The position numbers and the translations under genes are program-made. DNA of 10,467 bases from Escherichia coli. GTDB lineage: Bacteria > Pseudomonadota > Gammaproteobacteria > Enterobacterales > Enterobacteriaceae. The notes under the pieces were generated by a model. That model was given only the letters and a program-made list of their open reading frames with translations. It did not search any database and was not told the origin of the DNA. Positions 312 through 10,467 of the stretch are shown here, one piece after another (positions within the stretch are counted from its first letter, which is position 1; each line of letters opens with the position of its first letter). The stretch lies in assembly GCA_025544715.1 (NCBI GenBank), contig GCA_025544715.1_4109.7; one strand, written 5' to 3'.

Positions 312-455
312 TTACATCTTGCGGATAATCTTAACAGTATCTTTCACCGATTTACCGTCTTGCTGGCATTGCTCGATCATCGCGTATTGTTCTGCGGTCA
401 GATCTTCGCCAGTTTTAGCCAATACTGCATCGATGAATGAATCCAGTGCGATCAT
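312..455 (-). CDS. hypothetical protein (47 aa, MIALDSFIDAVLAKTGEDLTAEQYAMIEQCQQDGKSVKDTVKIIRKM)
   Basis: Translated by hand (below ORF-track cutoff); ATG 455 preceded by AAGAGAGAAA purine tract and sigma70-like promoter at 500-527; stop TAA 312-314; hairpin 280-305 downstream. Confidence 0.5.
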   Translation of the reverse strand: MIALDSFIDAVLAKTGEDLTAEQYAMIEQCQQDGKSVKDTVKIIRKM

Positions 456-499
456 TTTGTTTCTCTCTTAGGTTAAGTTAACTACTGTTTATAAAACTT

Positions 500-527
500 A
501 TTATACAGTACTATCAAACATTGTCAA
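500..527 (-). promoter_or_regulatory. sigma70-like early promoter, no stem-loop
   Basis: minus strand TTGACA (522-527), 16 nt spacer with AGTACT, TGTATAAT (-10 at 500-505). Confidence 0.6.
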
Positions 528-554
528 TAGATTTAATAGTACTGGTAATATATT

Positions 555-734
555 TTAGCGGTAATCGTCGTATGCTTTATTAACCTGGCGAATGTAACTT
601 TCAAAGGCTTCGTCTACCGTTTCATACTCCCGAACATAATCACCATAGGAAACCACATACATCCCTTTTTGTTCTTCAAACGTCATGATGATAGAATCCA
701 GGCCGATGATTTCAGTTTTTGCGATAATAGCCAT
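555..734 (-). CDS. hypothetical protein (59 aa; track ORF 555..803 trimmed to MAIIAKTEI...)
   Basis: ATG 734 has SD AAGGAAT 9 nt upstream and lies downstream of promoter -10 (775-780)/-35 (798-803); the track's longer start at 803 is upstream of the -35 and has no SD. Confidence 0.5.
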   Translation of the reverse strand: MAIIAKTEIIGLDSIIMTFEEQKGMYVVSYGDYVREYETVDEAFESYIRQVNKAYDDYR

Positions 735-774
735 TTTAGTATTCCTTAAATTAATATGTTGTCTTGATGTAGGT

Positions 775-803
775 ATTATGCCAGTACTATCAAACGTTGT
801 CAA
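775..803 (-). promoter_or_regulatory. sigma70-like early promoter (variant cassette without GGGGAG hairpin)
   Basis: TTGACA (798-803), 17 nt, CATAAT (775-780); near-identical copy at 3918-3946. Confidence 0.55.
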
Positions 804-822
804 TAGTACTGTGATAATATTT

Positions 823-1035
823 TTAGTTAATGATAGTCAGTGTAAAATTGTAATCCCCTGCCTGGTATAGTACTTTATCGCCGAACGTGCCGACACGTTT
901 CATATTGCAATAGATACCCATAACATTTTTTACATCTTTGATATTCCGAACGCCAGTGATATCCTTGTTGAAATTTTCATGATCAGAAAATAAAACTTGT
1001 TTTGCATTTTTCAGTACAGTGCGGATATTAGCCAT
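823..1035 (-). CDS. hypothetical protein (70 aa, MANIRTV...)
   Basis: ORF track; ATG 1035 directly after cassette stem-loop 1061-1080 and purine-rich SD; stop lies in upstream tract of next promoter. Confidence 0.6.
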   Translation of the reverse strand: MANIRTVLKNAKQVLFSDHENFNKDITGVRNIKDVKNVMGIYCNMKRVGTFGDKVLYQAGDYNFTLTIIN

Positions 1036-1060
1036 TTTGTTTTCTCTCTCTTTGTTAGTA

Positions 1061-1125
1061 GGGAAGTACTAATACTTCCCGTGCCTTGATGTAAACTATT
1101 ATACAGTACTAAAAACTATTGTCAA
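1061..1125 (-). promoter_or_regulatory. promoter + 5' UTR stem-loop cassette
   Basis: TTGACA 1120-1125, 16 nt, TATAAT 1098-1103; stem-loop GGGAAGTA/TACTTCCC 1061-1080. Confidence 0.65.
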
Positions 1126-1133
1126 ACTATTTT

Positions 1134-1334
1134 TTAAATTTTTTTCCATTTCATTTGCCCGGCCGGACGCTGAGCAATAGGAATAAACATATTGCTAATA
1201 TTACTGATATAACCTACCTGGAGATCACGCTGACTACCATACGCCCGACTTGCTGCATTTTTTGCCCCGCGTTCTGAATCGTATACGCCGTTAGATACTG
1301 AAAAACCTACTACACCGAAAGTGAATTGTTTCAT
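1134..1334 (-). CDS. hypothetical protein (66 aa, MKQFTFGVVGFS...)
   Basis: ORF track; ATG 1334 after stem-loop 1356-1374 and SD; stop TAA inside TTTTTTAA tract of cassette at 1120-1140. Confidence 0.6.
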   Translation of the reverse strand: MKQFTFGVVGFSVSNGVYDSERGAKNAASRAYGSQRDLQVGYISNISNMFIPIAQRPAGQMKWKKI

Positions 1335-1355
1335 TTTATATCTCTCTTTGTTAGT

Positions 1356-1414
1356 GGGGAGAACTATTCTCCCCTTGATGTAAACTATTATACAGTACTA
1401 TAAACTATTGTCAA
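1356..1414 (-). promoter_or_regulatory. promoter + 5' UTR stem-loop cassette
   Basis: TTGACA 1409-1414, 16 nt, TATAAT 1387-1392; stem-loop GGGGAGAA/TTCTCCCC 1356-1374. Confidence 0.65.
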
Positions 1415-1428
1415 ACTATTTTTTAATA

Positions 1429-1770
1429 TTATTCAAAATCTTCTGGACCGGACTGATAATCATCTTCACCGTATGCACTTTCTAACTTCTCGCCAGTGTG
1501 ATCATCAGTTAGTGAGTCATCCTCATAGTTCACGTCTACGCCCGTGATGTAAAACTGGCTATCGTCTGGATCATTGAAATTAATTTTCTGAATGTTTACA
1601 ATAACGGTATTGATGCCCAGGACACCGCCATCAGCAGTTACAAAGTACTGATATTTTTCACAACCGCCTGAATTGAAACCGTAATTGATTTCGGCCCGAC
1701 CATCATTTAAACGCAGTGCCTGAGCGATGATTTCGTTTTCAAAGTTAGATTGAGCAATTGCAATAGTCAT
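1429..1770 (-). CDS. hypothetical protein, acidic C-terminus (113 aa; track ORF trimmed to MTIAIAQSNF...)
   Basis: ATG 1770 with SD AAGGAAA 7 nt upstream, immediately downstream of stem-loop 1790-1808 and promoter (-10 1822-1827, -35 1844-1849); the track start at 1863 lies upstream of the promoter. Confidence 0.6.
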   Translation of the reverse strand: MTIAIAQSNFENEIIAQALRLNDGRAEINYGFNSGGCEKYQYFVTADGGVLGINTVIVNIQKINFNDPDDSQFYITGVDVNYEDDSLTDDHTGEKLESAYGEDDYQSGPEDFE

Positions 1771-1789
1771 GATTCGTTTCCTTATTACC

Positions 1790-1849
1790 AGGGGAAACCG
1801 TTTCCCCTCTCGATATAAAACATTATACGCGAATTGAGATAGTATGCAA
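1790..1849 (-). promoter_or_regulatory. promoter + 5' UTR stem-loop cassette
   Basis: TTGCAT 1844-1849, 16 nt, TATAAT 1822-1827; stem-loop AGGGGAA/TTCCCCT 1790-1808. Confidence 0.6.
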
Positions 1850-1903
1850 GTACTTTTTATCAAATACTTTAAAATAGTTTTCAGTACTCAAAGATTATAC
1901 AAT

Positions 1904-1947
1904 AGATACACTCCTGCACCCTGTGGGCTAGTGAGCTATCTCTCAAT
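1904..1947 (-). ncRNA. conserved element copy 1 (candidate small RNA or 5' leader)
   Basis: minus-sense GAGATAGCTCACTAGCCCACAGGGTGCAGGAGTGTATCT behind promoter 1954-1982; alignable with plus copy 6581-6618. Confidence 0.25.
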
Positions 1948-1953
1948 GAATAT

Positions 1954-1982
1954 ATAATAGCAAAATGGCTGACCGAAGTCAA
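1954..1982 (-). promoter_or_regulatory. sigma70-like promoter driving conserved element copy 1
   Basis: minus strand TTGACT (1977-1982), 17 nt, TATTAT (1954-1959); lies directly downstream of the stop at 1992. Confidence 0.4.
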
Positions 1983-1991
1983 CCACTTTTT

Positions 1992-2129
1992 TCATTTATT
2001 TTTAGCTTTTAGAATCGCCGCCTTTCGCGTCATGCCTTGCTTGATGTACTCCTTTACTTTCGCTTTACGTGCTTTCGCTTTATCTGCTTTCGTTTTAGGA
2101 GTACTGTAAATTATACCGTTAGGATTCAT
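1992..2129 (-). CDS. small Lys/Ala-rich basic protein (45 aa, MNPNGIIYSTPKTKADKAKARKAKVKEYIKQGMTRKAAILKAKNK)
   Basis: Translated by hand; ATG 2129 immediately follows the TAA of the upstream 29-aa ORF (TAAATG); GGTGA 6 nt upstream; stop TGA 1992-1994. Confidence 0.4.
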   Translation of the reverse strand: MNPNGIIYSTPKTKADKAKARKAKVKEYIKQGMTRKAAILKAKNK

Positions 2130-2219
2130 TTAAATCACCATAAAGAATAGATAGGTTACTAACAACGCCGCGATCAATGCACCGATCACCGCCGAACTGT
2201 AATAAGCCAATGATTTCAT
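2130..2219 (-). CDS. hydrophobic 29-aa peptide, predicted single transmembrane helix (MKSLAYYSSAVIGALIAALLVTYLFFMVI)
   Basis: Translated by hand; ATG overlaps the TGA of the upstream gene in an ATGA arrangement (translational coupling); uninterrupted hydrophobic core; no own SD. Confidence 0.35.
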   Translation of the reverse strand: MKSLAYYSSAVIGALIAALLVTYLFFMVI

Positions 2220-2368
2220 TTTTTAGCCTGAAAGTAATGTTTAATTTGTGCGGCGGTCAGTGCACAATTACGCAGGAAGTTTTCTGTATAACTGCGACGA
2301 GTACTGAAAGAGAATTGACCTTTGCCGTTACCGATAGTAACATCAAACCGAGCGTTGTATTGTTTCAT
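2216..2368 (-). CDS. hypothetical protein (50 aa; track ORF trimmed to MKQYNARFDV...)
   Basis: ATG 2368 with strong SD AGGAGA, downstream of stem-loop 2387-2406 and promoter (-10 2419-2424, -35 2441-2446). Confidence 0.55.
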   Translation of the reverse strand: MKQYNARFDVTIGNGKGQFSFSTRRSYTENFLRNCALTAAQIKHYFQAKK

Positions 2369-2386
2369 TTTGTTTCTCCTGTTATT

Positions 2387-2446
2387 GGGGAGAATCATTT
2401 CTCCCCTTCATGTAAAACATTATACAGTACTAAAAACTAATTGCAA
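2387..2446 (-). promoter_or_regulatory. promoter + 5' UTR stem-loop cassette
   Basis: TTGCAA 2441-2446, 16 nt, TATAAT 2419-2424; stem-loop GGGGAGAA/TTCTCCCC 2387-2406. Confidence 0.65.
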
Positions 2447-2449
2447 GTA

Positions 2450-2596
2450 CTATTTTTTAGATTTACGCAAACTTTCTACCATCTCAGGAGTAAGGCCAGG
2501 CGGGTAGGAAACCACTTCATCAACGAAACGTAAAGGGAATACCCCAGCGAAAGGTGAACATGCTTTCTTAGTATTACTCTTTTTTGATGCTTTCAT
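2450..2596 (-). CDS. small basic protein (48 aa, MKASKKSNTKKACSPFAGVFPLRFVDEVVSYPPGLTPEMVESLRKSKK)
   Basis: Translated by hand; ATG 2596 with SD AAGGAAT ~8 nt upstream, after stem-loop 2616-2635; stop TAG 2450-2452 abuts -35 of the next cassette. Confidence 0.5.
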   Translation of the reverse strand: MKASKKSNTKKACSPFAGVFPLRFVDEVVSYPPGLTPEMVESLRKSKK

Positions 2597-2615
2597 TTCA
2601 TATTCCTTAATTAGT

Positions 2616-2675
2616 GGGGAGAATCATTTCTCCCCTTCATGTAAAACATTATACAGTACTGAAAACTAATTGCAA
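2616..2675 (-). promoter_or_regulatory. promoter + 5' UTR stem-loop cassette
   Basis: TTGCAA 2670-2675, 16 nt, TATAAT 2648-2653; stem-loop 2616-2635, identical in sequence to the one at 2387-2406. Confidence 0.65.
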
Positions 2676-2875
2676 GTACTTTCTGAAAGTAAATGCTCAT
2701 AAGCTGCATTGACTACATTTTCAATAACCGACTGTACAGGAAGATCCCCCACGTCCTGGCTATAGTAGAAATCGCTTACAGTGGTGTTATCGTATGCAAA
2801 TACTTTACCAGGTACGGCATCAATCACATACATATTAACCTTTAAGATGTCGATTTTATCCTGTACAGTAAGCAT
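2666..2875 (-). CDS. hypothetical protein (69 aa)
   Basis: ORF track; ATG 2875 is 5 nt after the stop of 2881..3138 (operon partner); last codons and stop read through the spacer and -35 of cassette 2616-2675. Confidence 0.55.
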   Translation of the reverse strand: MLTVQDKIDILKVNMYVIDAVPGKVFAYDNTTVSDFYYSQDVGDLPVQSVIENVVNAAYEHLLSESTCN

Positions 2876-2880
2876 ATTAA

Positions 2881-3138
2881 TTAACCTTTTAAGTACTGGC
2901 TTAAGTAGTCTTGTTGATCTTCGGTGGTTGCCGCCATCTTCCCTAGTACTGGATTGATGATATAATCCTGATCCGCCTTATCAGTACTAGCAACCGGACG
3001 GATACGGGCCATTTCCTGGGCTTGTTCCACACTGTAACGCTCATAAAGGCGGCATTCTTCCGGTGTTAGCATTGCATCAATACGTTTCATTGGTTTAATG
3101 ATGCTTTCAACTTCATTGAGTACTTGATTAACGTTCAT
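2881..3138 (-). CDS. hypothetical protein (85 aa)
   Basis: ORF track; GGGGA SD 8 nt upstream of ATG 3138; no own cassette promoter, likely co-transcribed with 3190..3459; contains four AGTACT sites in three frames. Confidence 0.6.
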   Translation of the reverse strand: MNVNQVLNEVESIIKPMKRIDAMLTPEECRLYERYSVEQAQEMARIRPVASTDKADQDYIINPVLGKMAATTEDQQDYLSQYLKG

Positions 3139-3189
3139 GGTATAATCCCCAATATAAGCGGCCTAAATCAACCGCTAACGATGTTTTGA

Positions 3190-3459
3190 TTAATAGGTGT
3201 AGGGTTGACGCTCAAACAATGATTGCACGTTGTACGCCCCGCTAATGGGCTTCGCTGTCAAATCAATTTTATATTGTTCACGCTTAAAGATAATAAAACG
3301 ACAATTGTTCTTAACATCAAAATTGATTGAACGTTCCAGGAGTTTACCATCGTGCACAAATACAAGATAACCGCTCGCTACTTGTTTTGTAGTACTGGTT
3401 GCAACCATAGACCGACGAACATGTGTACCTGCATCGATTAAAGTACTGATATTTTTCAT
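3190..3459 (-). CDS. hypothetical protein (89 aa)
   Basis: ORF track; strong SD AAGAGGA 9 nt upstream of ATG 3459; preceded by a distinct stem-loop (3498-3526). Confidence 0.6.
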   Translation of the reverse strand: MKNISTLIDAGTHVRRSMVATSTTKQVASGYLVFVHDGKLLERSINFDVKNNCRFIIFKREQYKIDLTAKPISGAYNVQSLFERQPYTY

Positions 3460-3497
3460 TATACTATCCTCTTAAGTTAGTTTAATTTCTTTCCCCT

Positions 3498-3534
3498 ATG
3501 CAGACACTATATCAAAGTATCTGCATAAAGTAAA
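3498..3534 (-). promoter_or_regulatory. possible weak promoter plus distinct 5' stem-loop for operon 3459->2666
   Basis: minus strand TTTACT (3529-3534), 17 nt, TATAGT (3506-3511); inverted repeat ATGCAGA/TCTGCAT 3498-3526; not the cassette type. Confidence 0.3.
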
Positions 3535-3539
3535 GCTAA

Positions 3540-3884
3540 TTAAAGATCTTTTTTGCGTTTAACATCAGTTACCGAACTGTAAACAGTGATATTATTGTCA
3601 CGGCAAAAACGTGAAAGGTATGATCCGCGTGTAAACTCCTTCCCTTCCATATCAATAACCTTGCTAAATTCTTCCATTGCTACGGTGTCAAAGTGATCCC
3701 CATAACCATATTGGAACGGCACGTTTACCACTTCAATAAAATTACCATCGATTTCAACGTCTACACTTAAAGAAAAATAAGTGTTACCATATGAAGCCTG
3801 GAACCAACGCCGAGCGGCAATATGTACAACTTCAACAGAAGACAGGTTGATATTTTGTGCAGCGATGGTGTTGATGTTAGCCAT
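3540..3884 (-). CDS. hypothetical protein (114 aa, MANINTIAAQ...)
   Basis: ORF track; SD AAGAGGAAA; hairpin-less cassette promoter 3918-3946. Confidence 0.65.
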   Translation of the reverse strand: MANINTIAAQNINLSSVEVVHIAARRWFQASYGNTYFSLSVDVEIDGNFIEVVNVPFQYGYGDHFDTVAMEEFSKVIDMEGKEFTRGSYLSRFCRDNNITVYSSVTDVKRKKDL

Positions 3885-3917
3885 TTTTGTTTCCTCTTAG
3901 TTGTCTTGATAAAATCT

Positions 3918-3946
3918 ATTATGCCAGTACTATCAAACTATGTCAA
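3918..3946 (-). promoter_or_regulatory. sigma70-like early promoter (variant cassette without GGGGAG hairpin)
   Basis: TTGACA 3941-3946, 17 nt, CATAAT 3918-3923; near-identical to 775-803. Confidence 0.6.
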
Positions 3947-3965
3947 TAGTACTGTGATAATAATT

Positions 3966-4109
3966 TTACTTACTTTTTGCTTTCTTTACAGCTTCCACCT
4001 GGTCGGCCCACTCTTTACCCCATACTTGAGCGTTATAGTGATACTGACAAAGAGCAACGCCCCGTTTCAAACCAGTAATAGATTTTTTACCACATTGACA
4101 AGTTTTCAT
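3966..4109 (-). CDS. small Cys/His-containing protein, possible zinc-binding (47 aa, MKTCQCGKKSITGLKRGVALCQYHYNAQVWGKEWADQVEAVKKAKSK)
   Basis: Translated by hand; ATG 4109 with SD AAGAGGAAA after stem-loop 4128-4147; C-x-C ... C-x2-H spacing. Confidence 0.5.
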   Translation of the reverse strand: MKTCQCGKKSITGLKRGVALCQYHYNAQVWGKEWADQVEAVKKAKSK

Positions 4110-4127
4110 TTTTAGTTTCCTCTTAGT

Positions 4128-4187
4128 GGGGAGAACCATTTCTCCCCTTGATGTAATGTATTATACTTTATCTGACTTACTTTGCAA
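4128..4187 (-). promoter_or_regulatory. promoter + 5' UTR stem-loop cassette
   Basis: TTGCAA 4182-4187, 16 nt, TATAAT 4160-4165; stem-loop GGGGAGAA/TTCTCCCC 4128-4147. Confidence 0.65.
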
Positions 4188-4194
4188 GTACTTT

Positions 4195-4422
4195 TTAGTT
4201 TAATTCATCCAGGCATAAGATACGATCTACGCCGAGATCCGTTAAGCTAATGGTTGGCACTTGATAGGTTTCAATGTATTCTACACTAGCCCACTGACCG
4301 AACTCATTCACCGCCCAGGTATTCATTGCAAAATGTAATTCCGCACCTTTCTTATTAGTAATTACAGCAACAGTAGAAGAAGTGCCAGTAGTACCAGTTA
4401 CATAAGCGATTACGATAGCCAT
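4195..4422 (-). CDS. hypothetical protein (75 aa)
   Basis: ORF track; SD AGGAAT; promoter -10 4456-4461, -35 4479-4484. Confidence 0.6.
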   Translation of the reverse strand: MAIVIAYVTGTTGTSSTVAVITNKKGAELHFAMNTWAVNEFGQWASVEYIETYQVPTISLTDLGVDRILCLDELN

Positions 4423-4455
4423 TGTTTTGATTCCTATTCAGTAGTTGATGTATGT

Positions 4456-4484
4456 ATTATGTCAGTACTTAAAACTATTGTCAA
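4456..4484 (-). promoter_or_regulatory. sigma70-like early promoter, no stem-loop
   Basis: TTGACA 4479-4484, 17 nt, CATAAT 4456-4461. Confidence 0.55.
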
Positions 4485-4492
4485 ACTATTTT

Positions 4493-4645
4493 TTAAAGTT
4501 TATCAATGATTGATGCCGTTTCATTGATAGTCTTGCCGTGTTTTGCACACGCAATAACTGCTTTAAATTCCTTTGATGACCAATCTTTCTTGCTGCATAC
4601 TGACATTACTTGTAACGTGAAACAATCCAGTTCATAAGTATTCAT
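4493..4645 (-). CDS. hypothetical protein (50 aa, MNTYELDCFTLQVMSVCSKKDWSSKEFKAVIACAKHGKTINETASIIDKL)
   Basis: Translated by hand; ATG 4645 with SD GAGGA 8 nt upstream; cassette 4666-4718; stop TAA inside TTTTTTAAA tract of next cassette. Confidence 0.5.
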   Translation of the reverse strand: MNTYELDCFTLQVMSVCSKKDWSSKEFKAVIACAKHGKTINETASIIDKL

Positions 4646-4665
4646 CTTTATATCCTCAGTTAGTT

Positions 4666-4718
4666 AAGGTGTTTCGCCTTGATGTAATTAATTATACGCT
4701 AATCTCTTAATCGTGCAA
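4666..4718 (-). promoter_or_regulatory. promoter + weak 5' stem-loop
   Basis: TTGCAC 4713-4718, 16 nt, TATAAT 4691-4696; short hairpin AAGGTG/CGCCTT 4666-4680. Confidence 0.55.
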
Positions 4719-4825
4719 GTACTTTTTATTAGTTTTTATAAAATACTTTCTACGCCCTCAATCGCATTCTAACGACCATAACGCCACCAGCTAGGGCGAT
4801 GTATCAGATAATCAGTTTAATGCGT

Positions 4826-4839
4826 TAGAATCGATTCTA
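4826..4839. repeat. 14-bp perfect palindrome TAGAATCGATTCTA in a non-coding spacer
   Basis: self-complementary; overlaps an inverted copy of the TTCTAACG motif. Confidence 0.8.
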
Positions 4840-4871
4840 GGCGGTGCTAGTGGACTGGAATACTATAGACA

Positions 4872-4899
4872 CAAAAAAGCCCACTGTTTATAGTGGGCT
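4872..4899 (-). terminator. Rho-independent terminator
   Basis: minus strand AGCCCACT-ATAAAC-AGTGGGCT followed by UUUUUUGU; preceded by AGTACTGAATCA. Confidence 0.7.
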
Positions 4900-4920
4900 A
4901 GTGATTCAGTACTTTAATTG

Positions 4921-5403
4921 TTATGCTTCAACTTTGCGATGAGATTCGATCCATTCCTCACGGGTCAATCCGCTTTCTTTGATAGCATCCAGTACTACCG
5001 CGATGCAATTACCGCGTACTGGTACAGTGTATTCCTCGCCATTATCCAGAACTACAGTAACACGTTCTTGAATCCATTTTTTAGGTTTAGATTCTGGCTT
5101 ATCTTCACCATACTTAACCGCCAGGGCTTTATGTGCCATTTCGACAACTACTTCCAGATCCAATCCAGACACCGCCGCCTGGATACTTTCAATTGTTGCT
5201 TGCAGTTCTGCTTCACGGGCTTTTTTCTGTTCTTCCAGTTCTGCTACCTTTTTGGCTTGCAGTTCTTTCGCTTCGCTGTACGCAATGTTAAAATTGTTGC
5301 GTACTGCTTTCATGGTATCGTTATCCAGGTCAGCCAGCAATTCAGCAGCAATAACAGTATCGTTTGAAATCAGTGCTTTCAGGAATGATTTTACATTAGC
5401 CAT
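4921..5403 (-). CDS. hypothetical protein with central Glu/Lys/Ala-rich predicted coiled-coil (160 aa; start moved to MANVKSF...)
   Basis: The track start at 5418 is a TTG codon; ATG 5403 has SD GAGGA 9 nt upstream; promoter -10 TAGAAT 5527-5532, -35 5549-5554; intrinsic terminator downstream (4872-4899). Confidence 0.65.
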   Translation of the reverse strand: MANVKSFLKALISNDTVIAAELLADLDNDTMKAVRNNFNIAYSEAKELQAKKVAELEEQKKAREAELQATIESIQAAVSGLDLEVVVEMAHKALAVKYGEDKPESKPKKWIQERVTVVLDNGEEYTVPVRGNCIAVVLDAIKESGLTREEWIESHRKVEA

Positions 5404-5526
5404 TTTATAAATCCTCAATTAAAGTTTAGTTTACGTTAGTTAGTGTATCAAAGTTTTATTGACGTGTCCAGTTTTTCATTCGACTTACTGGCGGTCTACT
5501 TAGTGTTCCCCGTCTTGATGTAATAC

Positions 5527-5554
5527 ATTCTACGCCTTTTTGTGGTAATGTCAA
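5527..5554 (-). promoter_or_regulatory. sigma70-like promoter with long (~115 nt) leader
   Basis: TTGACA 5549-5554, 16 nt, TAGAAT 5527-5532; ATG at 5403. Confidence 0.5.
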
Positions 5555-5608
5555 CTACTTTTTTAAAACTATTTTCAAAGTATTCTAGTACTACAATCCT
5601 ACAATAAC

Positions 5609-5635
5609 AAAAAAGCCCACTGCTTATAGTGGGCT
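5609..5635 (-). terminator. Rho-independent terminator (near-identical copy of the 4872-4899 module)
   Basis: AGCCCACT-ATAAGC-AGTGGGCT followed by UUUUUUGUUAUUG; preceded by AGTACTGAATCA. Confidence 0.7.
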
Positions 5636-5652
5636 AGTGATTCAGTACTAGA

Positions 5653-5952
5653 TTATAAACAGTTAATTACTCCTGTATGCGTTACTTTCTCCGTATCCAT
5701 GACAGTGACAGAACCACGTTTAGCACTGGCATCATAATAAATTGTTGTGCTACCTTTATCATCTTCTTCATGGAACGGGCCGTTTTTAAATGCTTCCGGC
5801 TGCAATTCCAGATCCTTTAAAACAATCTCGCCTGTACTTTCATTGGTCATTGCTACTGTGCACTGAATGAATTTATCACTACTCACATCTAACGATGCGT
5901 TAACAGCGAAAGAGGAAACAGATAAAGCCAGGGCGATGATTGCAATTTTCAT
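5653..5952 (-). CDS. predicted secreted/periplasmic protein with N-terminal signal peptide (99 aa, MKIAIIALALSVSSFAVNA|S...)
   Basis: ORF track; hydrophobic N-terminus with AxA-like cleavage motif; its promoter cassette lies across the N gap at 6127-6186; terminator 5609-5635 downstream. Confidence 0.6.
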   Translation of the reverse strand: MKIAIIALALSVSSFAVNASLDVSSDKFIQCTVAMTNESTGEIVLKDLELQPEAFKNGPFHEEDDKGSTTIYYDASAKRGSVTVMDTEKVTHTGVINCL

Positions 5953-6110
5953 TTGNNNNNNNNNNNNNNNNNNNNNNNNNNNNNNNNNNNNNNNNNNNNN
6001 NNNNNNNNNNNNNNNNNNNNNNNNNNNNNNNNNNNNNNNNNNNNNNNNNNNNNGTTAACAGCGAAAGAGGAAACAGATAAAGCCAGGGCGATGATTGCAA
6101 TTTTCATTTG
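5899..6110. repeat. exact 57-bp direct duplication flanking the N gap (5899-5955 = 6054-6110)
   Basis: identical strings GTTAACAGCGAAAGAGGAAACAGATAAAGCCAGGGCGATGATTGCAATTTTCATTTG on both sides; most likely overlapping contig ends, so the true sequence probably joins 5955 to 6111. Confidence 0.8.
5956..6053. other. 98-nt run of N (assembly or scaffold gap)
   Basis: unbroken N run; both flanks are an identical 57-bp sequence. Confidence 0.95.
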
Positions 6111-6126
6111 ATTATCCTTAGTTACC

Positions 6127-6186
6127 AGGGGGAACCTCTCCCCCTTGCGATGTAAAATATTATACAGTACTAAAAACTATTATCAA
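6127..6186 (-). promoter_or_regulatory. promoter + 5' UTR stem-loop cassette (serves the gene across the N gap)
   Basis: TTGATA 6181-6186, 16 nt, TATAAT 6159-6164; stem-loop AGGGGGA/TCCCCCT 6127-6145. Confidence 0.6.
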
Positions 6187-6191
6187 GTACT

Positions 6192-6428
6192 TTATGATTT
6201 TTTATAAAACATTTCAGCAGTGATATTTTTACCCGTTGGCTGTACTTTATCCAGAATTTTTTGATGCCCTGGAAGTCCAAATGAATATGATCCGTAAACC
6301 GTAAACCAGTAGTTACCCTCAGTGTTTACATGTACAGCACAATAGGGAACGCCCCGCGATTCATCACCAATAAAGTGTGATACCGTTCCCGTTACATTAG
6401 CAGACGTTGATTTGATTTGTTCAAGCAT
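6192..6428 (-). CDS. hypothetical protein (78 aa)
   Basis: ORF track; SD AAGGAAT; cassette with stem-loop 6449-6467, -10 6477-6482, -35 6499-6504. Confidence 0.6.
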   Translation of the reverse strand: MLEQIKSTSANVTGTVSHFIGDESRGVPYCAVHVNTEGNYWFTVYGSYSFGLPGHQKILDKVQPTGKNITAEMFYKKS

Positions 6429-6448
6429 TTTCTTATTCCTTAGTTACC

Positions 6449-6504
6449 AGGGGGAACCGCTCCCCCTATGCAAAACATTATACGCGTTTAAAAACTAATA
6501 GCAA
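6449..6504 (-). promoter_or_regulatory. promoter + 5' UTR stem-loop cassette
   Basis: TTGCTA 6499-6504, 16 nt, TATAAT 6477-6482; stem-loop AGGGGGA/TCCCCCT 6449-6467. Confidence 0.6.
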
Positions 6505-6537
6505 GTATTTTAATAAAAAGTATTTGAAAAATAATTG

Positions 6538-6566
6538 TTGACAACTGCATCCAGTACTGGCATAAT
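6538..6566 (+). promoter_or_regulatory. plus-strand sigma70-like promoter, divergent from the 6449-6504 cassette
   Basis: TTGACA 6538-6543, 17 nt spacer containing AGTACT, CATAAT 6561-6566; no plus-strand ORF downstream. Confidence 0.5.
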
Positions 6567-6572
6567 TACTAC

Positions 6573-6680
6573 ATAAAGACGAGATAGTCACTAACCCACC
6601 GGGTGCATAGATCCGTCTATTAAATGATTCAGTACTGAAAAAGTAACGGGGAGTTATTATCTCCCCGCGTTGTTATTTGG
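6573..6680 (+). ncRNA. candidate small non-coding RNA (~105 nt) of the conserved-element family
   Basis: own promoter 6538-6566, conserved element 6581-6618, palindrome TTCAGTACTGAA 6628-6639, terminator hairpin 6647-6667 with U tract; longest ATG ORF is 4 codons. Confidence 0.35.
6647..6680. terminator. bidirectional intrinsic terminator
   Basis: CGGGGAG-TTATTAT-CTCCCCG hairpin; U-rich on the plus side (GUUGUUAUUU) and on the minus side (UUACUUUUUC); ends both the plus small transcript and minus gene 6673..6894. Confidence 0.6.
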
Positions 6681-6894
6681 TAAGGTATAAACAGAAGTCA
6701 CCTTTATTTGCTACGCCGCCAGTGTAACGCGATGAATAGTTAGAAACGTCCTGGACTTCTGCTATTACCAGTGTATCATCATTCAATTCGTCGCAGAAGC
6801 AAACGGCTGGATCTTTTACGCCGATCTTGTCGGCATGTTCCCGCATAGATTTAACCAGTGCTTCCAGTTGAGAAAGAGTAGTGATATTAGCCAT
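6673..6894 (-). CDS. hypothetical protein (73 aa; track ORF trimmed to MANITTLSQ...)
   Basis: ATG 6894 with SD GAGGAAA downstream of stem-loop 6914-6931; the track start at 6924 lies inside the stem-loop; bidirectional terminator 6647-6667 just after the stop. Confidence 0.6.
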   Translation of the reverse strand: MANITTLSQLEALVKSMREHADKIGVKDPAVCFCDELNDDTLVIAEVQDVSNYSSRYTGGVANKGDFCLYLTK

Positions 6895-6913
6895 TGTATT
6901 TTCCTCATTACCA

Positions 6914-6972
6914 GGGAGAACCATTTCTCCCCTCTATGTAAACTATTATACAGTACTGGAAACTAATTGCAA
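6914..6972 (-). promoter_or_regulatory. promoter + 5' UTR stem-loop cassette
   Basis: TTGCAA 6967-6972, 16 nt, TATAAT 6945-6950; stem-loop GGGAGAA/TTCTCCC 6914-6931. Confidence 0.65.
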
Positions 6973-6980
6973 GTACTTTT

Positions 6981-7184
6981 TTAATTTAATTGCTTTAAAA
7001 CATACTCAAAGACACCACGCACATCATTGATCATCGCCTGGCGGTTAGCAGGTAACGCACCAAGATCGCCACTATCCCAGGCATTGATAAAACTCCCCAA
7101 ATCATGATAGATTTTATTCTGTAAGCCGATCAACTGTAATTCTTTTTCTTCAAGCTCTTTAATACGGTCGATTAAAAGACTCAT
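6981..7184 (-). CDS. hypothetical protein (67 aa; trimmed to MSLLIDRIKELEE...)
   Basis: ATG 7184 with SD GAGGA; 17 nt after the stop of 7202..7489; shares a 20-nt RBS/start module with that gene. Confidence 0.5.
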   Translation of the reverse strand: MSLLIDRIKELEEKELQLIGLQNKIYHDLGSFINAWDSGDLGALPANRQAMINDVRGVFEYVLKQLN

Positions 7185-7201
7185 TAGATAATCCTCAGTA
7201 C

Positions 7202-7489
7202 TTAATTGTAAGATCCGCAACGGTTACAATAGTGCCCGTCTTCCTCGTCATCGTCAACGAATTGACTAACGAAATTATCTACTTTCTCTTTGAGATTCTG
7301 ATAATTGTTTTCTACTTCCTTTAAACGTTCCTGGTAGTATTCCAGTGCTTGCACATACGCCGCCTCAGCCGTTTTAGCTCTTAAGGCTAAATTCATGCCA
7401 CGCGTTTCATCGTACATCCAAAAGCCATCGGTGCACTCACTGATTGACAATGATTTGGTTAACACTTTATAGTCAATTACTTTGCTCAT
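7202..7489 (-). CDS. hypothetical protein with C-terminal C-x2-C (95 aa; trimmed to MSKVIDYK...)
   Basis: ATG 7489 with SD GAGGA 9 nt upstream; the track start at 7528 lies inside the hairpin 7508-7526; no own promoter, likely co-transcribed with 7546..7785. Confidence 0.55.
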   Translation of the reverse strand: MSKVIDYKVLTKSLSISECTDGFWMYDETRGMNLALRAKTAEAAYVQALEYYQERLKEVENNYQNLKEKVDNFVSQFVDDDEEDGHYCNRCGSYN

Positions 7490-7507
7490 TAGATAATCCT
7501 CAGTAAA

Positions 7508-7526
7508 GGCGGGAACCACACCCGCC
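7508..7526 (-). terminator. intercistronic GC hairpin (attenuator or processing site?)
   Basis: GGCGGG-AACCACA-CCCGCC between stop at 7546 and ATG at 7489; followed by UUUACU on the minus strand; preceded by the 14-bp palindrome 7531-7544. Confidence 0.3.
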
Positions 7527-7530
7527 ATTG

Positions 7531-7544
7531 ATTCAGTACTGAAT
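7531..7544. repeat. 14-bp perfect palindrome ATTCAGTACTGAAT
   Basis: self-complementary; related copies TGATTCAGTACT at 4902-4913, 5638-5649, 6625-6636 and in reverse at 10171-10185. Confidence 0.8.
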
Positions 7545-7545
7545 G

Positions 7546-7785
7546 TTACATTCCAACCATTGCAGCACGGATCGCCGTAGTGCTATACTTGAATCCGTCC
7601 GGCGTTGTAGTAGTACCGTTGGCTTTTAATCTGCGGTACATACATTGGGCCGCAATATCTTTAGTTTTACATTGTGCGATGCAACTTTGAGCAAGCCGAT
7701 ATAATGACTCACCGTTATTAATCCACAATGAAACATTCCAATGAGTTTTGTTTTTGTGCCCGTTGTAAGTTTTAGTACTAGCCAT
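7546..7785 (-). CDS. hypothetical protein, paralog of 9143..9382 (79 aa)
   Basis: ORF track; SD GAGGA; cassette 7808-7869; shares GHKNKTHWNVSLWINN and an identical C-terminal 19 aa with 9143..9382. Confidence 0.65.
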   Translation of the reverse strand: MASTKTYNGHKNKTHWNVSLWINNGESLYRLAQSCIAQCKTKDIAAQCMYRRLKANGTTTTPDGFKYSTTAIRAAMVGM

Positions 7786-7807
7786 TTTTAAATCCTCGTT
7801 TGATTGA

Positions 7808-7869
7808 GCAGGGGAACCATTCCCCCGCCTCGATATAAAGTATTATACGCCGTTAAACTTAGTTTGCAA
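7808..7869 (-). promoter_or_regulatory. promoter + 5' UTR stem-loop cassette
   Basis: TTGCAA 7864-7869, 16 nt, TATAAT 7842-7847; stem-loop 7808-7828. Confidence 0.65.
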
Positions 7870-7882
7870 GTACTTTTTTAAA

Positions 7883-8494
7883 TTAATATTCGATTGATTC
7901 TACTACGCCATCAATCACATTGAATTGATATTCGTTACCCTCGATCAGTGCTACGATGTTTTCAGTAGTGAATTGATCCTCATATGCATTCTCTAAATCA
8001 CGGTACAACTTGCGTGACAATTCACGAATAGTATCAGTGAGTAGTTCCTCAAGCTCATTAACTAACGTTTCTTGTTTTGCGGTTAAATCAGTGTAAGCCG
8101 ATTCAATGTACCCGCTTACAGTATTCTCATGCGAGTAGCGAGAGTGAGAACGCTTTACACTCATTGCCAAATCATCTTCATTCAGCAGGTGACGGATTGA
8201 GCGATACTTAGTTAACGCCTTAACCTTGCGTAAAAACTTCACTGCGTCAACGTGGTCAGTACTGATTGATGCACCGTCACCTTGCGACCAAAAACCACTG
8301 AATTGCAATTCCGCGTCAGTAATACCATACTCCGGCAACAATGTTTCTTTATAGTATTCATATACGCCCTCAGAAAAGAAATCATCACCGCTTGAACGTT
8401 CCCGATCCCGAACCAGTTCGATAGCTGACGTTTGTTGTTCTGCGTTCAATTCAGAAAAAGCCATAACATAAGTAGTAGTAGTGATAGTTTTCAT
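7883..8494 (-). CDS. hypothetical acidic protein (203 aa), largest ORF in the window
   Basis: ORF track; SD GAGGG 9 nt upstream of ATG 8494; promoter -10 8527-8532, -35 8549-8554, with a second complete cassette further upstream. Confidence 0.7.
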   Translation of the reverse strand: MKTITTTTYVMAFSELNAEQQTSAIELVRDRERSSGDDFFSEGVYEYYKETLLPEYGITDAELQFSGFWSQGDGASISTDHVDAVKFLRKVKALTKYRSIRHLLNEDDLAMSVKRSHSRYSHENTVSGYIESAYTDLTAKQETLVNELEELLTDTIRELSRKLYRDLENAYEDQFTTENIVALIEGNEYQFNVIDGVVESIEY

Positions 8495-8526
8495 TTTGTA
8501 ACCCTCATTCAGTAGTTGATGTAAGT

Positions 8527-8554
8527 ATTATACGCTTTTAAAAACAATTGTCAA
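8527..8554 (-). promoter_or_regulatory. sigma70-like early promoter, no stem-loop
   Basis: TTGACA 8549-8554, 16 nt, TATAAT 8527-8532. Confidence 0.55.
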
Positions 8555-8603
8555 ACTATTTTATCAGGGGAGTTTTTCGTAAGTCTTACTCCTGGACTAC
8601 TTA

Positions 8604-8671
8604 ACGGGGAGTTACTTATTCATTCCCCGTCCTGATGTAAAACATTATACGCCTTTAAACATAGTTTGCAA
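8604..8671 (-). promoter_or_regulatory. orphan promoter + stem-loop cassette with no ORF of its own (tandem with 8527-8554)
   Basis: TTGCAA 8666-8671, 16 nt, TATAAT 8644-8649; stem-loop ACGGGGA/TCCCCGT 8604-8630; the next ATG-initiated ORF is only 5 codons. Confidence 0.5.
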
Positions 8672-8708
8672 GTACTTTTTAAAAAATAGTTTTAATCACT
8701 TTTATATA

Positions 8709-8752
8709 GATACACTCCCGCACCCTATGGGCTATCGCCTTGTGTCCGGCTT
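8709..8752 (-). ncRNA. conserved element copy 4 (candidate small RNA or 5' leader)
   Basis: minus-sense ..GATAGCCCATAGGGTGCGGGAGTGTATCT behind promoter 8759-8787. Confidence 0.25.
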
Positions 8753-8758
8753 GTAAGT

Positions 8759-8787
8759 ATTATCTCACTAAGCCGGATAATGGTCAA
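8759..8787 (-). promoter_or_regulatory. sigma70-like promoter driving conserved element copy 4
   Basis: minus strand TTGACC (8782-8787), 17 nt, GATAAT (8759-8764). Confidence 0.35.
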
Positions 8788-8793
8788 GTACTT

Positions 8794-9060
8794 TTATTCA
8801 AGTACTGCAATCTTTTTAGTACTGTACACAGTAACACGGTTGCCCTTGCGGTCGTGCTTTATTTCTACCACGCGACGCGATACACTATCAGGACGCTTTA
8901 AAGCAGATAGCCAGTACTGAATAGATCGGGCTGTACTTCTCTTTACTACGGCCCAACGTTTACCACGTTCCGATTGTACGCCCATATCTTTAAACGTCGC
9001 CCCGTCCTGGCGTGCTGCAATCCGAGCAAGTTCACGCGTAGCAAAGTAAGTAATATTCAT
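8794..9060 (-). CDS. hypothetical basic protein (88 aa; trimmed to MNITYFATRELARIAARQ...)
   Basis: ATG 9060 with GGGG SD-like 9 nt upstream; the track start at 9114 lies upstream of the -10 (9097-9102). Confidence 0.5.
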   Translation of the reverse strand: MNITYFATRELARIAARQDGATFKDMGVQSERGKRWAVVKRSTARSIQYWLSALKRPDSVSRRVVEIKHDRKGNRVTVYSTKKIAVLE

Positions 9061-9096
9061 GCTGATACCCCTATCGTTGTTGTATAAAAGAAATCT

Positions 9097-9121
9097 ATTA
9101 TAAAGTACTATCACCGTGCAA
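9097..9121 (-). promoter_or_regulatory. degenerate cassette promoter (spacer only 13 nt)
   Basis: TATAAT 9097-9102 and TTGCAC 9116-9121 are too close for a canonical sigma70 promoter; looks like a cassette with ~3 nt deleted from the spacer. Confidence 0.25.
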
Positions 9122-9142
9122 TAGTACTTTTAATCTATTCTC

Positions 9143-9382
9143 TTACATTCCAACCATTGCAGCACGGATCGCCGTAGTACTATACTTGAATCCGTCCGGT
9201 GTTTTATCTTGTCCAGTCTGTTCTAAAAATAGCATCATATGACGGGCCGCATCATTGCGATTAGTGTTAGCGGCAATAAAGTCCAGGGCCAACCGATATA
9301 ATGATTCATCATTATTAATCCAAAGGCTTACATTCCAATGAGTTTTATTTTTGTGACCTAAGAACATTTTTGATTTAGCCAT
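9143..9382 (-). CDS. hypothetical protein, paralog of 7546..7785 (79 aa)
   Basis: ORF track; SD GAGGA 9 nt upstream of ATG 9382; cassette 9406-9462; near-identical nucleotide sequence to 7546..7785 at both ends. Confidence 0.65.
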   Translation of the reverse strand: MAKSKMFLGHKNKTHWNVSLWINNDESLYRLALDFIAANTNRNDAARHMMLFLEQTGQDKTPDGFKYSTTAIRAAMVGM

Positions 9383-9405
9383 TTTAAAATCCTCTGAATT
9401 ATGGC

Positions 9406-9462
9406 GGGGAACTATTCCCCACCTGATAGAAAGTATTATACATTAATCGAATTACTTTGCAA
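9406..9462 (-). promoter_or_regulatory. promoter + 5' UTR stem-loop cassette
   Basis: TTGCAA 9457-9462, 16 nt, TATAAT 9435-9440; stem-loop GGGGAA/TTCCCC 9406-9420. Confidence 0.65.
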
Positions 9463-9465
9463 GTA

Positions 9466-9657
9466 CTATTTTTTGCAATATTCGTAAATCTCTTTATATC
9501 CGCTTAGTACTACATCGCCCCGCTGCAATGTGATAGATTCGAAATCATCATGATTAACAGCGTTTAACCAGTTTAAAGCCTTCATCTTATTTGGGTATTT
9601 TTGTTCGTGCTGGTTTTCCCCATCAATCAACCAGTACTGTATAATTATCTCACGCAT
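9466..9657 (-). CDS. hypothetical protein (63 aa)
   Basis: ORF track; AAGGG SD; 11 nt after the stop of 9669..10031 (operon partner); stop TAG just upstream of the next cassette -35. Confidence 0.55.
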   Translation of the reverse strand: MREIIIQYWLIDGENQHEQKYPNKMKALNWLNAVNHDDFESITLQRGDVVLSGYKEIYEYCKK

Positions 9658-9668
9658 ACATATTACCC

Positions 9669-10031
9669 TTATTCGTAAATCTTGCCACTGTCAGCCCATA
9701 CCAGGAAACGCGGCATATTATCCCATGCATCTTGTTTCAAGTTTAAACCGTGTAATACTTCGGTACTTTCCATTCCTGGTACTGGTTTACTATACACCGC
9801 AAACATTTCGCCCATGTACTGATAAGCCATCGTTAAATCACTGGCGATCATCTTATGGATCATCGCATCAAGCATCACAGTAGCGGCGTATTGTTCACGC
9901 TTAAGCGGTAACATTTTAATAAGTTCCCGATAAGCTGAAATATGAATTTTTACAGTCTCAGCGGGGAGATCTTTCATCTCTTCACGAAAGTTAACCAGGT
10001 TAGCAATGATTTTAGTGATTTGAGTCGCCAT
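9669..10031 (-). CDS. hypothetical protein (120 aa)
   Basis: ORF track; ATG 10031 downstream of imperfect stem-loop 10052-10076 and promoter (-10 TAGAAT 10087-10092, -35 TTGCAA 10109-10114). Confidence 0.65.
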   Translation of the reverse strand: MATQITKIIANLVNFREEMKDLPAETVKIHISAYRELIKMLPLKREQYAATVMLDAMIHKMIASDLTMAYQYMGEMFAVYSKPVPGMESTEVLHGLNLKQDAWDNMPRFLVWADSGKIYE

Positions 10032-10051
10032 CGTTTTAATCTCTTAAAAGT

Positions 10052-10114
10052 GAGTCGGGAGCGTATCCCCCGTCTCGATGTAAAACATTCTACACCTTTC
10101 CCAATACGTTGCAA
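10052..10114 (-). promoter_or_regulatory. promoter + imperfect 5' stem-loop
   Basis: TTGCAA 10109-10114, 16 nt, TAGAAT 10087-10092; imperfect hairpin 10052-10076. Confidence 0.55.
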
Positions 10115-10348
10115 GTACTTTCTACAAATACTTTTAAAATAGTTTTCTTTCTATATAGGAGTACTATCATCCAGTACTGAATCAATCAAGGGAGTACAAT
10201 TATTCAGTACTATACCGTAAAACGGCCTCAGTCGCTTTCTAACGCATTAATACACCTAAGCTATACATTTGCACCACTCCCAACAATCCAGGGCGTTACA
10301 GGCCGTTTAAACGCGTTAAATTATTTTCAATTATTTTGTTTTTAGCTA

Positions 10349-10376
10349 TTGACTCAGTACAGAAAAAGCGTATAAT
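10349..10376 (+). promoter_or_regulatory. plus-strand sigma70-like promoter driving conserved element copy 3
   Basis: TTGACT 10349-10354, 16 nt, TATAAT 10371-10376; transcript start ATTACTACATAGACG.. matches that of the 6538-6566 promoter. Confidence 0.5.
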
Positions 10377-10382
10377 TACTAC

Positions 10383-10428
10383 ATAGACGCGAGAAAGCGG
10401 ATACCCCAGGGGGTGCCGAGATCCGTCC
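10383..10428 (+). ncRNA. candidate small RNA, conserved element copy 3 (3' end undefined)
   Basis: own promoter 10349-10376; element GAGAAAGCGGATACCCCAGGGGGTGCCGAGATCCGTCC 10391-10428 alignable with 6581-6618. Confidence 0.3.
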
Positions 10429-10467
10429 AAAATTCATAAAATTTAAAAAGGATACACTCCCGCACCT

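Follow-up and report, generated by a model that had tools for sequence, protein, structure and literature searches.

Stem-loops at the 5' end are known to stabilise mRNAs of Escherichia coli and its phages, examples being the leader of ompA and T4's stable intercistronic hairpins. Large virulent phages carry host-takeover modules in their terminal repeats, such as the terminal redundancy of SPO1 and the pre-early region of T5. Promoter early stem-loop (PeSL) cassettes were described in the T4-type phages RB49 and phi1 (Arbiol et al. 2010, PMC2839356) and also in T4/PST and KVP40/nt-1 (Comeau et al. 2014, PMC4122927); in RB49, two cassettes that flank a gene can recombine, giving mini-circles that are encapsidated (Arbiol et al. 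2010, PMC2839356). Lambdoid morons, single accessory genes with their own promoter, are discussed in the same paper (PMC2839356), and RpoD-like promoters with UP-like elements were reported in the early region and 22 kb terminal repeat of the Rak2-like phage CBB (PMC5259590). Here we analyse a stretch of 10,467 nucleotides (hereafter the window) from an E. coli assembly (GCA_025544715.1, contig GCA_025544715.1_4109.7), for which an array of promoter and stem-loop cassettes of the PeSL kind had been proposed from its letters alone (the original prediction). The array works like a PeSL array, yet it is distinct from the RB49 family, being a known arrangement in a new phage group and with a new layout. 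Our literature search found no prior description of these cassettes in Rak2-like, 121Q, rV5 or phi92 phages, only generic lists of sigma70-like promoters (CBB, rV5), subscription literature being partly outside its coverage.

The window belongs to the early, host-takeover region of a jumbo coliphage of the genus Asteriusvirus and lies in the direct terminal repeat of that phage. In megablast searches, both halves match Asteriusvirus phages (121Q, PBECO4, CRJP21, ph0011, G17 and others) with 87-93% identity in many separate pieces, and the phage is 121Q/PBECO4-like, of ~350 kb, within the Rak2-like group. It is not the RB49/phi1-type phage that had been suggested. The homologous stretch lies from ~1.25 kb to ~11 kb in those records of relatives that start at the physical end, and it maps within the annotated 21,525 bp direct terminal repeat of vB_Ec-M-J. 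Since the plausible genes, like the cassette units, are all on the minus strand, transcription would run inward from the genome end.

A strict sigma70 rule (at least 5/6 matches to TTGACA or TTGCAA, a spacer of 16-17 nt, and at least 5/6 matches to TATAAT) gave 23 minus-strand and 5 plus-strand sites, against 2.2±1.5 sites (maximum 7) in dinucleotide shuffles (n=200). One of the 23, at 9338, is inside a gene and is probably a chance match. A looser promoter scan ranks the same sites at the top, and 22 sites of the window have at least 10/12 promoter matches. An independent repeat search also recovered the cassettes, as direct-repeat families of 13 x 61 nt, 11 x 70 nt, 7 x 95 nt and 6 x 91 nt. 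The predicted array is thus real, although its strand had not been stated and several of its details were wrong. About 19 of about 30 open reading frames (ORFs) have a cassette of their own, not nearly every gene; those lacking one are 9466-9657, 7202-7492, 6981-7186, 3190-3459, 2881-3138, 2666-2875, 2133-2219 and 1992-2129. Conversely, the cassettes at 8671 and 8787 have no ORF behind them, and the one at 9121 is degenerate. The distance between units goes from 116 to 1271 bp, a wider range than the 150-600 bp first given. In the complete, unannotated TH47 genome, 18 of 19 promoter and hairpin units are in one 30 kb stretch and on a single strand, and the hairpin rule fires at 0.9% of random positions.

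Read on the minus strand, the unit consists of an A-tract (AAAAAATAGT or AAAAAGTAC, 5' of the -35 in 12 of the 23 sites), TTGACA or TTGCAA, a spacer of 16-17 nt, and (T/C)G-TATAAT or TGG-CATAAT. These are followed by a/g-TTTACATC-a/g-AG, the hairpin, CTAAC or CTGGTAA, a purine-rich Shine-Dalgarno (SD) sequence and ATG. Directly after the -10, (T)TTACATC(A/G)AG is conserved. The sequence proposed to follow the spacer, TGTATAAT, occurs in about half of the copies, the remaining ones having CGTATAAT or TGGCATAAT. AGTACT, which had been placed in every spacer, is within it in 11 of the 22 units; those with TTGCAA instead have an AGTACT that overlaps the -35 (AGTACTTGCAA).

The leaders of 13 of the 22 cassettes fold into a single hairpin of 8-10 bp, with energies of -11 to -16.5 kcal/mol, and 5 leaders are completely unstructured. 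Among 280 promoter instances (184 with hairpin), the modal hairpin start is 12-14 nt after the -10, that is, about +6 of the predicted RNA and within the predicted transcript. The stems vary in sequence yet stay complementary (GGGGAGAA/TTCTCCCC, GCGGGAA/TTCCCGC, GGTGGGGAA/TTCCCCACT, GGGAAGTA/TACTTCCC), and their internal mismatches are G·T in 18 cases and A·C in 3, an excess that fits pairing in the sense-strand RNA. Since the stems differ in length, the alignment of 90 distinct hairpin segments (MAFFT followed by RNAalifold) gave a partial consensus, used for outer-pair covariation only. No T-run or U-tract was found after the cassette hairpins. The terminator scan called 4878-4899, 5614-5635, 6646-6668 and 1962-1989, while the sole cassette hairpin called was 10056-10072, with a weak tail; the first three are canonical terminators with T-runs, separate from the cassettes, which close transcription units. 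The fixed site downstream of the predicted start and the lack of a U-tract suggest that the hairpin is an mRNA-leader element more likely than a terminator. According to the original prediction, an SD-like 5' arm might be sequestered by the pairing; in folds of full leaders the genuine SD is unpaired. The pyrimidine 3' arm might pair with it only if the 5' arm were removed, and a processing-dependent shut-off through such pairing after loss of the 5' arm would be a speculation.

The hairpin loop often reads ATG directly after the SD-like GGGGAGAA (2398, 4139 and 6924, minus strand), which leads ORF callers to start genes inside the hairpin. We considered this loop ATG (GGGGAGAAATG) as the real start codon and rejected it as probably not one, because the SD-ATG spacing is 2 nt, the relatives annotate the downstream ATG, and only three cassettes have the loop ATG in the reading frame of the ORF, 10 codons before its start.

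We compared the homologous region of eight relatives after calling and clustering their ORFs and writing each region as a string of promoters, promoters with hairpin, terminators and gene families. In these strings, the relatives differ mostly by whole units of promoter (with or without hairpin) plus gene. The gene 1134-1334 is found only in the window, 2450-2596 is missing from 3 of the 8 relatives, and 4493-4645 from 4 of them; at 8495-8793, the window has tandem cassettes with no ORF where relatives have one to three genes. Breakpoint ends fall in cassettes in 69 of 104 cases (66%, excluding an artefact of the N gap described below), the share of the sequence within cassettes being 23%.

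More specific than this enrichment are the observations at 1134-1334 and 2450-2596, the cleanest cases of gene presence or absence. At both indels, relatives have one cassette, and it can be aligned with the window cassette on either side of the gene, with overlaps of 55-104 bp (-55 to -104 at the former and -74/-75 at the latter). When read base by base, this junction cassette is a hybrid, its upstream half matching the upstream window cassette and its SD side the downstream one. The longest identical runs between adjacent cassettes, of 46 and 28 nt, flank exactly these two genes, the median over all pairs being 10 nt; the 46-nt run is shared by the cassettes 2594..2687 and 2366..2458. At the orthologous site before the gene 823-1035, relatives have a hairpin of the GGGGAGAA type, of the GGGAAGTA type, or both in tandem, which suggests that the hairpin may be an exchangeable sub-module. 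In one relative, the two leader hairpins upstream of the 823-1035 homologue are in tandem as CGGGAAGTTTTTAAAACTTCCC then GGGAGAATAGTTCTCCC.

As a blastn query, the cassette hit 11-13 places per Asteriusvirus genome, or 20-26 where the record holds both terminal repeats, and also a small number of places in phages of the rV5-like and phi92-like groups and of other Rak2-like genera. No phage of the RB49 group was matched, so the resemblance to PeSLs comes without detectable sequence homology. Part of the window matches phages of Vequintavirinae and Stephanstirmvirinae at 70-90% nucleotide identity. The Vequintavirinae phage A7_1 and the Justusliebigvirus VEcB have homologues of eight window genes in a different order, and the regions upstream of them keep the cassette grammar, e.g. 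TTGACA-N16-TATAAT-ggTTTACATCGAGA-GCGGGAAtagTTCCCGC-CTCAC..AAGAGA..ATG. The DUF7249 gene has a hairpin cassette in the window and in VEcB and a hairpin-less one in A7_1, indicating that genes and cassettes re-associate. This family (DUF7249, phrog_871) is represented in the window by two paralogous 79-aa genes, 7546-7785 and 9143-9382, whose 3' ends are 95% identical. It is also found in many rV5-like, phAPEC8-like and phi92-like coliphages at 76-90% nucleotide identity, in some of them together with the upstream hairpin and promoter.

AGTACT itself is a genome-wide feature of these phages. We counted 61 copies in the window against 3.4 expected (18-fold) and 917 in TH47 against 119, often in the context (TT)CAGTACTG(AA). 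Within long ORFs of TH47 there are 499 copies, against 132±7.5 after synonymous-codon shuffling, with all three frames enriched. The enrichment is 6-8-fold genome-wide across three Rak2-like genera, and ~6.4-fold in 25 kb of RaK2 and of GAP32; it was not seen in rV5-like or phi92-like early regions. The early region has the highest density, 61-75 per 10 kb versus about 20 elsewhere. In about 9 promoters, two copies 19-22 bp apart bracket the -35 (e.g. 2426/2446, 2655/2675 and 6952/6972). Relative to gene starts and ends the distribution is near-uniform, with only a 2-fold rise just after stop codons. A drive by deamination repair of the very-short-patch type was rejected, since the deamination neighbours AGTATT (1.04) and AATACT (1.2) show no depletion. 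We found no cause for the over-representation, and the literature search found no earlier account of it in Rak2-like, 121Q, rV5 or phi92 phages.

The explanation that we favour, and that we consider probable as a whole, is an early region with host-type promoters for individual genes, a leader hairpin acting at the RNA level, and gene shuffling driven by the cassettes. About 20 small ORFan genes would each be preceded by a cassette of ~90-100 bp, comprising a UP-like A-tract, a near-consensus sigma70 promoter suited to unmodified host RNA polymerase, the putative start region TTTACATCaAG and, in the 3' part, a G-then-C hairpin of 8-10 bp (13 copies), CTAAC, SD and ATG. Consensus strength, strand bias and position suggest that every gene would have its own strong early promoter. 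The hairpin would be transcribed in the mRNA leader, at about +6 to +30, and most likely acts there as a stabilising or processing barrier, against 5'-end-dependent decay of the local mRNAs and against 3' exonucleases on read-through RNAs; it would not be a classical terminator. The comparison of relatives supports an evolutionary role as well: being long near-repeats that all point the same way, the cassettes allow homologous recombination to delete, insert and reorder units of cassette plus gene, a type of unit that unrelated large coliphages share.

Some points weigh against this explanation. Start sites, promoter strength and timing are predictions from the sequence. Several copies have modest fold z-scores relative to shuffled sequences (-0.7 to -2.2), because runs of G and C pair easily, and the G·T bias was counted on related sequences. 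The leaders resemble those of the ompA type in having a short, stable, GC-rich hairpin near the transcript 5' end and an unpaired ribosome-binding site downstream. However, if transcription starts at the predicted A, 6-8 unpaired nt would precede the hairpin, a single-stranded tail longer than in the classic protective cases and longer than ideal for 5'-end protection. The breakpoint ends are not independent, as the relatives share ancestry, and correspond to about 10-12 independent events. Nearly all intergenic gaps hold a cassette, so that breakpoints in cassettes are not fully separable from breakpoints between genes, and some lie outside cassettes altogether (9661-9668, 7197-7546 and 5620-5660).

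These last points are also what one would expect if the cassettes were ordinary early promoters and leaders, alike by shared descent and selection for the consensus, with no role in shuffling, and only breakpoints between genes survived. The enrichment of 66% in 23% does not separate cassettes from intergenic position, the ends of several events lie outside cassettes, and the median identity run between cassette pairs is short. On the other hand, the junction cassettes of relatives are hybrids, alignable over 55-104 bp with the window cassettes on both sides, and of all adjacent cassette pairs the two most similar ones enclose the two cleanest indels. The DUF7249 family stands behind different cassette classes in different phages, and gene order is scrambled across phage families while the cassette grammar is kept. 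We regard this explanation as rather doubtful. An RNA-level role of the hairpin, in turn, competes with termination: as in RB49/phi1 PeSLs, the stem-loops could be terminators or attenuators which block read-through, leaving each gene to depend mainly on the promoter of its own cassette. An RB49 PeSL stem-loop cut downstream lacZ about as much as the rrnB T1 terminator (PMC2839356), the stems share a polyG/polyC make-up, and the window hairpins lie downstream of every upstream gene. Yet a hairpin located after the predicted start of its own cassette would attenuate its own gene equally. None of the cassette hairpins has a U-tract, while separate canonical terminators with T-runs exist in the window, and five cassettes have no hairpin at all, which makes termination unlikely.

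It is equally unlikely, in our view, that the conserved parts are sites acting in the DNA (the paired AGTACT and a GGGAA..TTCCC inverted repeat), through which a phage or host protein would switch the early promoters off (or on) together, the hairpin potential being a by-product of an operator. Such sites would account for the paired AGTACT copies around the -35 and spacer of about 9 promoters, for the AGTACT peak in the early region, and for a stem core, GGGRA..TYCCC, that is conserved in sequence beyond pairing alone. Nevertheless, AGTACT is enriched throughout the genome, long ORFs included, and is absent from the equivalent VEcB cassettes, so it is an overlay outside the core function of the cassette. 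The bias of G·T over A·C (18:3) and the variable loops also favour pairing in RNA over a double-stranded operator. Returning to promoters with an RNA hairpin and recombining cassettes, a broader proposal can be made, tentative when taken with all its parts and in our judgement rather unlikely to hold in full. The cassette would be a "plug-and-play" expression module common to unrelated large coliphages (Asteriusvirus, other Rak2-like genera, Vequintavirinae and Stephanstirmvirinae), with early ORFans moving and being reordered between lineages through cassette recombination in co-infected cells. In Rak2-like phages, the paired AGTACT at the -35 would in addition possibly be part of a clade-wide, genome-wide (6-8-fold enriched) recognition system for a DNA-binding or DNA-marking factor that also controls early promoters.

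Compared with the described systems, PeSLs are the most similar. The elements in common are the AT-rich tract, the near-consensus sigma70 promoter, the polyG/polyC stem-loop with its G·T pairs, and the SD and ATG. Both are clustered in a hypervariable region of small ORFans and located at indel boundaries between close relatives, with chimeric cassettes at junctions and orphan and degraded copies beside indels. The PeSL reading of the original prediction therefore stands for the promoter, the tract, the G/C stem-loop, the ORFan region and the indel boundaries, and fails for the position of the stem-loop and the phage group. In the window the stem-loop is fixed downstream of the predicted start, whereas in RB49/phi1 its position varies around the promoter: it can be upstream of the -35, overlap the -35 or the -10, lie between the two, or end shortly before the start site. 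Only read-through transcripts contain it there, and it is an effective terminator; the window hairpins show no sign of a terminator design. About a quarter of the window cassettes have no stem-loop, the Asteriusvirus copies bear AGTACT palindromes, and the phage is a Rak2-like jumbo phage with no sequence match to the RB49 group.

The host-takeover modules of large phages, including the early region of CBB, share with the window the many tiny unknown genes, the near-individual strong promoters of host type and the location in a terminal repeat that enters first. Their descriptions, in contrast, are not known to include a repeated leader hairpin or cassette shuffling, and the CBB paper presents 18 promoters and no stem-loop (PMC5259590). 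Lambdoid morons are also single accessory genes travelling with their own promoter, but they have no conserved flanking repeats and are thought to insert by illegitimate recombination, while the flanks of the window genes are homologous cassettes.

The individual cassettes, all on the minus strand, are as follows from the right end of the window. The cassette 10029..10126 (TTGCAA-N16-TAGAAT, leader hairpin CGGGGGatacgCTCCCG, SD and ATG; -14.1 kcal/mol, z -3.4) precedes the gene 9669-10031 (120 aa, phrog_7352). At 9380..9474, AGTACTTGCAA-N16-TATAAT with the hairpin GGTGGGGAAtagTTCCCCGCC (-16.0 kcal/mol, z -3.5) precedes the DUF7249 gene 9143-9382, and the match with VEcB extends through both hairpin and promoter. 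A degenerate copy of the hairpin-less class (AGTACTATTGCAC, 13-nt spacer, TATAAT) is found at 9058..9135, before the gene 8794-9060. The promoter TTGACC-N17-GATAAT at 8700..8799 leads to a unit with no ORF, composed of a small hairpin (GCCggacacaaGGC) and then TAGCCCATAGGGTGCGGGAGTGTATCTAT. An orphan cassette (AGTACTTGCAA-N16-TATAAT, hairpin ACGGGGA...TCCCCGT) follows at 8585..8683, also with no ORF behind it; in this interval relatives have the genes g26/g27/g28/g42. The hairpin-less 8492..8566 (TTGACA-N16-TATAAT) stands before the gene 7883-8494 (203 aa, phrog_5162), and 7783..7881, with the hairpin GGCGGGGGAAtggTTCCCCTGCTC (repeat families D8/D9), before 7546-7785, the paralogue of 9143-9382.

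In the central part, the cassette 6892..6984, with two AGTACT copies 20 bp apart and the hairpin GGGGAGAAatggTTCTCCCT, is located before the gene 6673-6894, and 6426..6516 (TTGCTA-N16-TATAAT, hairpin GGGGGAGcggTTCCCCC) before 6192-6428. Another with two AGTACT copies, 6105..6198 (TTGATA-N16-TATAAT, hairpin GGGGGAGaggTTCCCCC), precedes a 99-aa gene whose start is duplicated across an N gap. This N run (5946-6053) is an assembly gap with identical 57-nt copies on either side (5899-5955 and 6054-6110; repeat family D10); it is a scaffolding artefact duplicating the start of the gene, and the true gene is 5653-5952. At 5401..5566, the promoter TTGACA-N16-TAGAAT has a long leader of ~120 nt before the gene 4921-5403 (160 aa, phrog_27871). 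A weak hairpin is present in 4643..4730 (AGTACTTGCAC-N16-TATAAT), before the gene 4493-4645 that half of the relatives lack. The hairpin-less 4420..4496 (TTGACA-N17-CATAAT, extended -10 TG) precedes 4195-4422, and 4107..4199, with the hairpin GGGGAGAAatggTTCTCCCC, precedes 3966-4109; the latter cassette and gene are also present in A7_1.

The left part begins with the hairpin-less cassette 3882..3958 (AGTACTATTGACA...GATAGTACTGGCATAAT), located before the gene 3540-3884 and 93% identical to the cassette at 774-829 (D14). The cassette 2594..2687, with two AGTACT copies and the hairpin GGGGAGAAatgaTTCTCCCC, precedes 2450-2596, and the near-identical 2366..2458 (repeat family D3) precedes 2216-2368. 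Three cassettes with hairpin follow: 1768..1861 (AGTACTTGCAT-N16-TATAAT, GGGGAAACggTTTCCCC) before the gene 1429-1770, 1332..1426 (TTGACA-N16-TATAAT, GGGGAGAAtagTTCTCCCC) before the window-only gene 1134-1334, and 1033..1137 (TTGACA-N16-TATAAT, GGGAAGTAttagTACTTCCC) before 823-1035. The last two are hairpin-less, 732..815 (CATAAT with extended -10) before 555-734 and 453..539 (TTGACA-N16-TATAAT) before 312-455.

Canonical intrinsic terminators on the minus strand are found at 5614..5635 (AGCCCACTATAAGCAGTGGGCT followed by TTTTTTG, called by the terminator scan) and, as a repeat copy (D12), at 4878..4899. Each belongs to an 87% identical "terminator cassette" (4854-4913 and 5590-5649) reading AAAAAAGCCCACTnnTTATAGTGGGCT, then AGTGATTCAGTACT, and after each copy there are 150-250 nt of non-coding sequence before the next promoter. 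The hairpin 6646..6668 is a two-way terminator, ending the gene 6673-6894 on the minus strand and an ORF-less unit that starts from a promoter at 6538 on the plus strand. A short motif, CGTTAGAATGCG, occurs in either orientation in non-coding spacers after terminators (~225-245, 4764-4780, 4815-4835 and 10230-10250).

The ten largest products of the window matched solely PHROG/Pfam families of unknown function (10/10 tested proteins). No tRNA or tmRNA genes were found in the window by the respective scan, and in Rfam 15 at E<=1 no family was reached, the single match, Trp_leader on a terminator, being below threshold (24.6 bits, gathering score 41, E 0.19). ORF-less units with a strong predicted promoter are present at 6538-6680 (+), 10349-10467 (+), 8700-8787 (-) and 1905-1982 (-). 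By blastn, the early region of each of the eight relatives has 3-6 copies, both orientations being represented, and orthologues are 77-97% identical. They contain a 3-4 bp hairpin with a covarying stem (GAC/GUC, GUC/GAC, CGC/GCG, GCC/GGC), followed by the nearly invariant ACUA(A/G)CCCAYNGGGUGC, and could be small RNAs or protein-binding sites. In TH47, the Chi octamer is over-represented and strand-biased (CCACCAGC 17 and GCTGGTGG 6 copies, against about 1 expected each), and the Chi-related hexamers CACCAG and CTGGTG are 3.5-4.8-fold enriched.

The cassettes explain the poor assembly and annotation of this region, namely the N gap and the gene calls starting in hairpin loops. They may also serve as strong, compact early promoters and as natural recombination landing sites for the engineering of jumbo coliphages, and the fixed site of the hairpin in the leader makes them a clean test case for RNA stability versus termination. 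The over-representation of AGTACT across Rak2-like genera is a question separate from the cassettes. If the explanation that we favour is true, shuffling of PeSL-type cassettes with their genes would not be peculiar to T4-like phages. It would be a general route for the exchange of host-takeover genes among large virulent phages, in this case within the terminal repeat of jumbo phages of 350 kb and between phage families with a common host.

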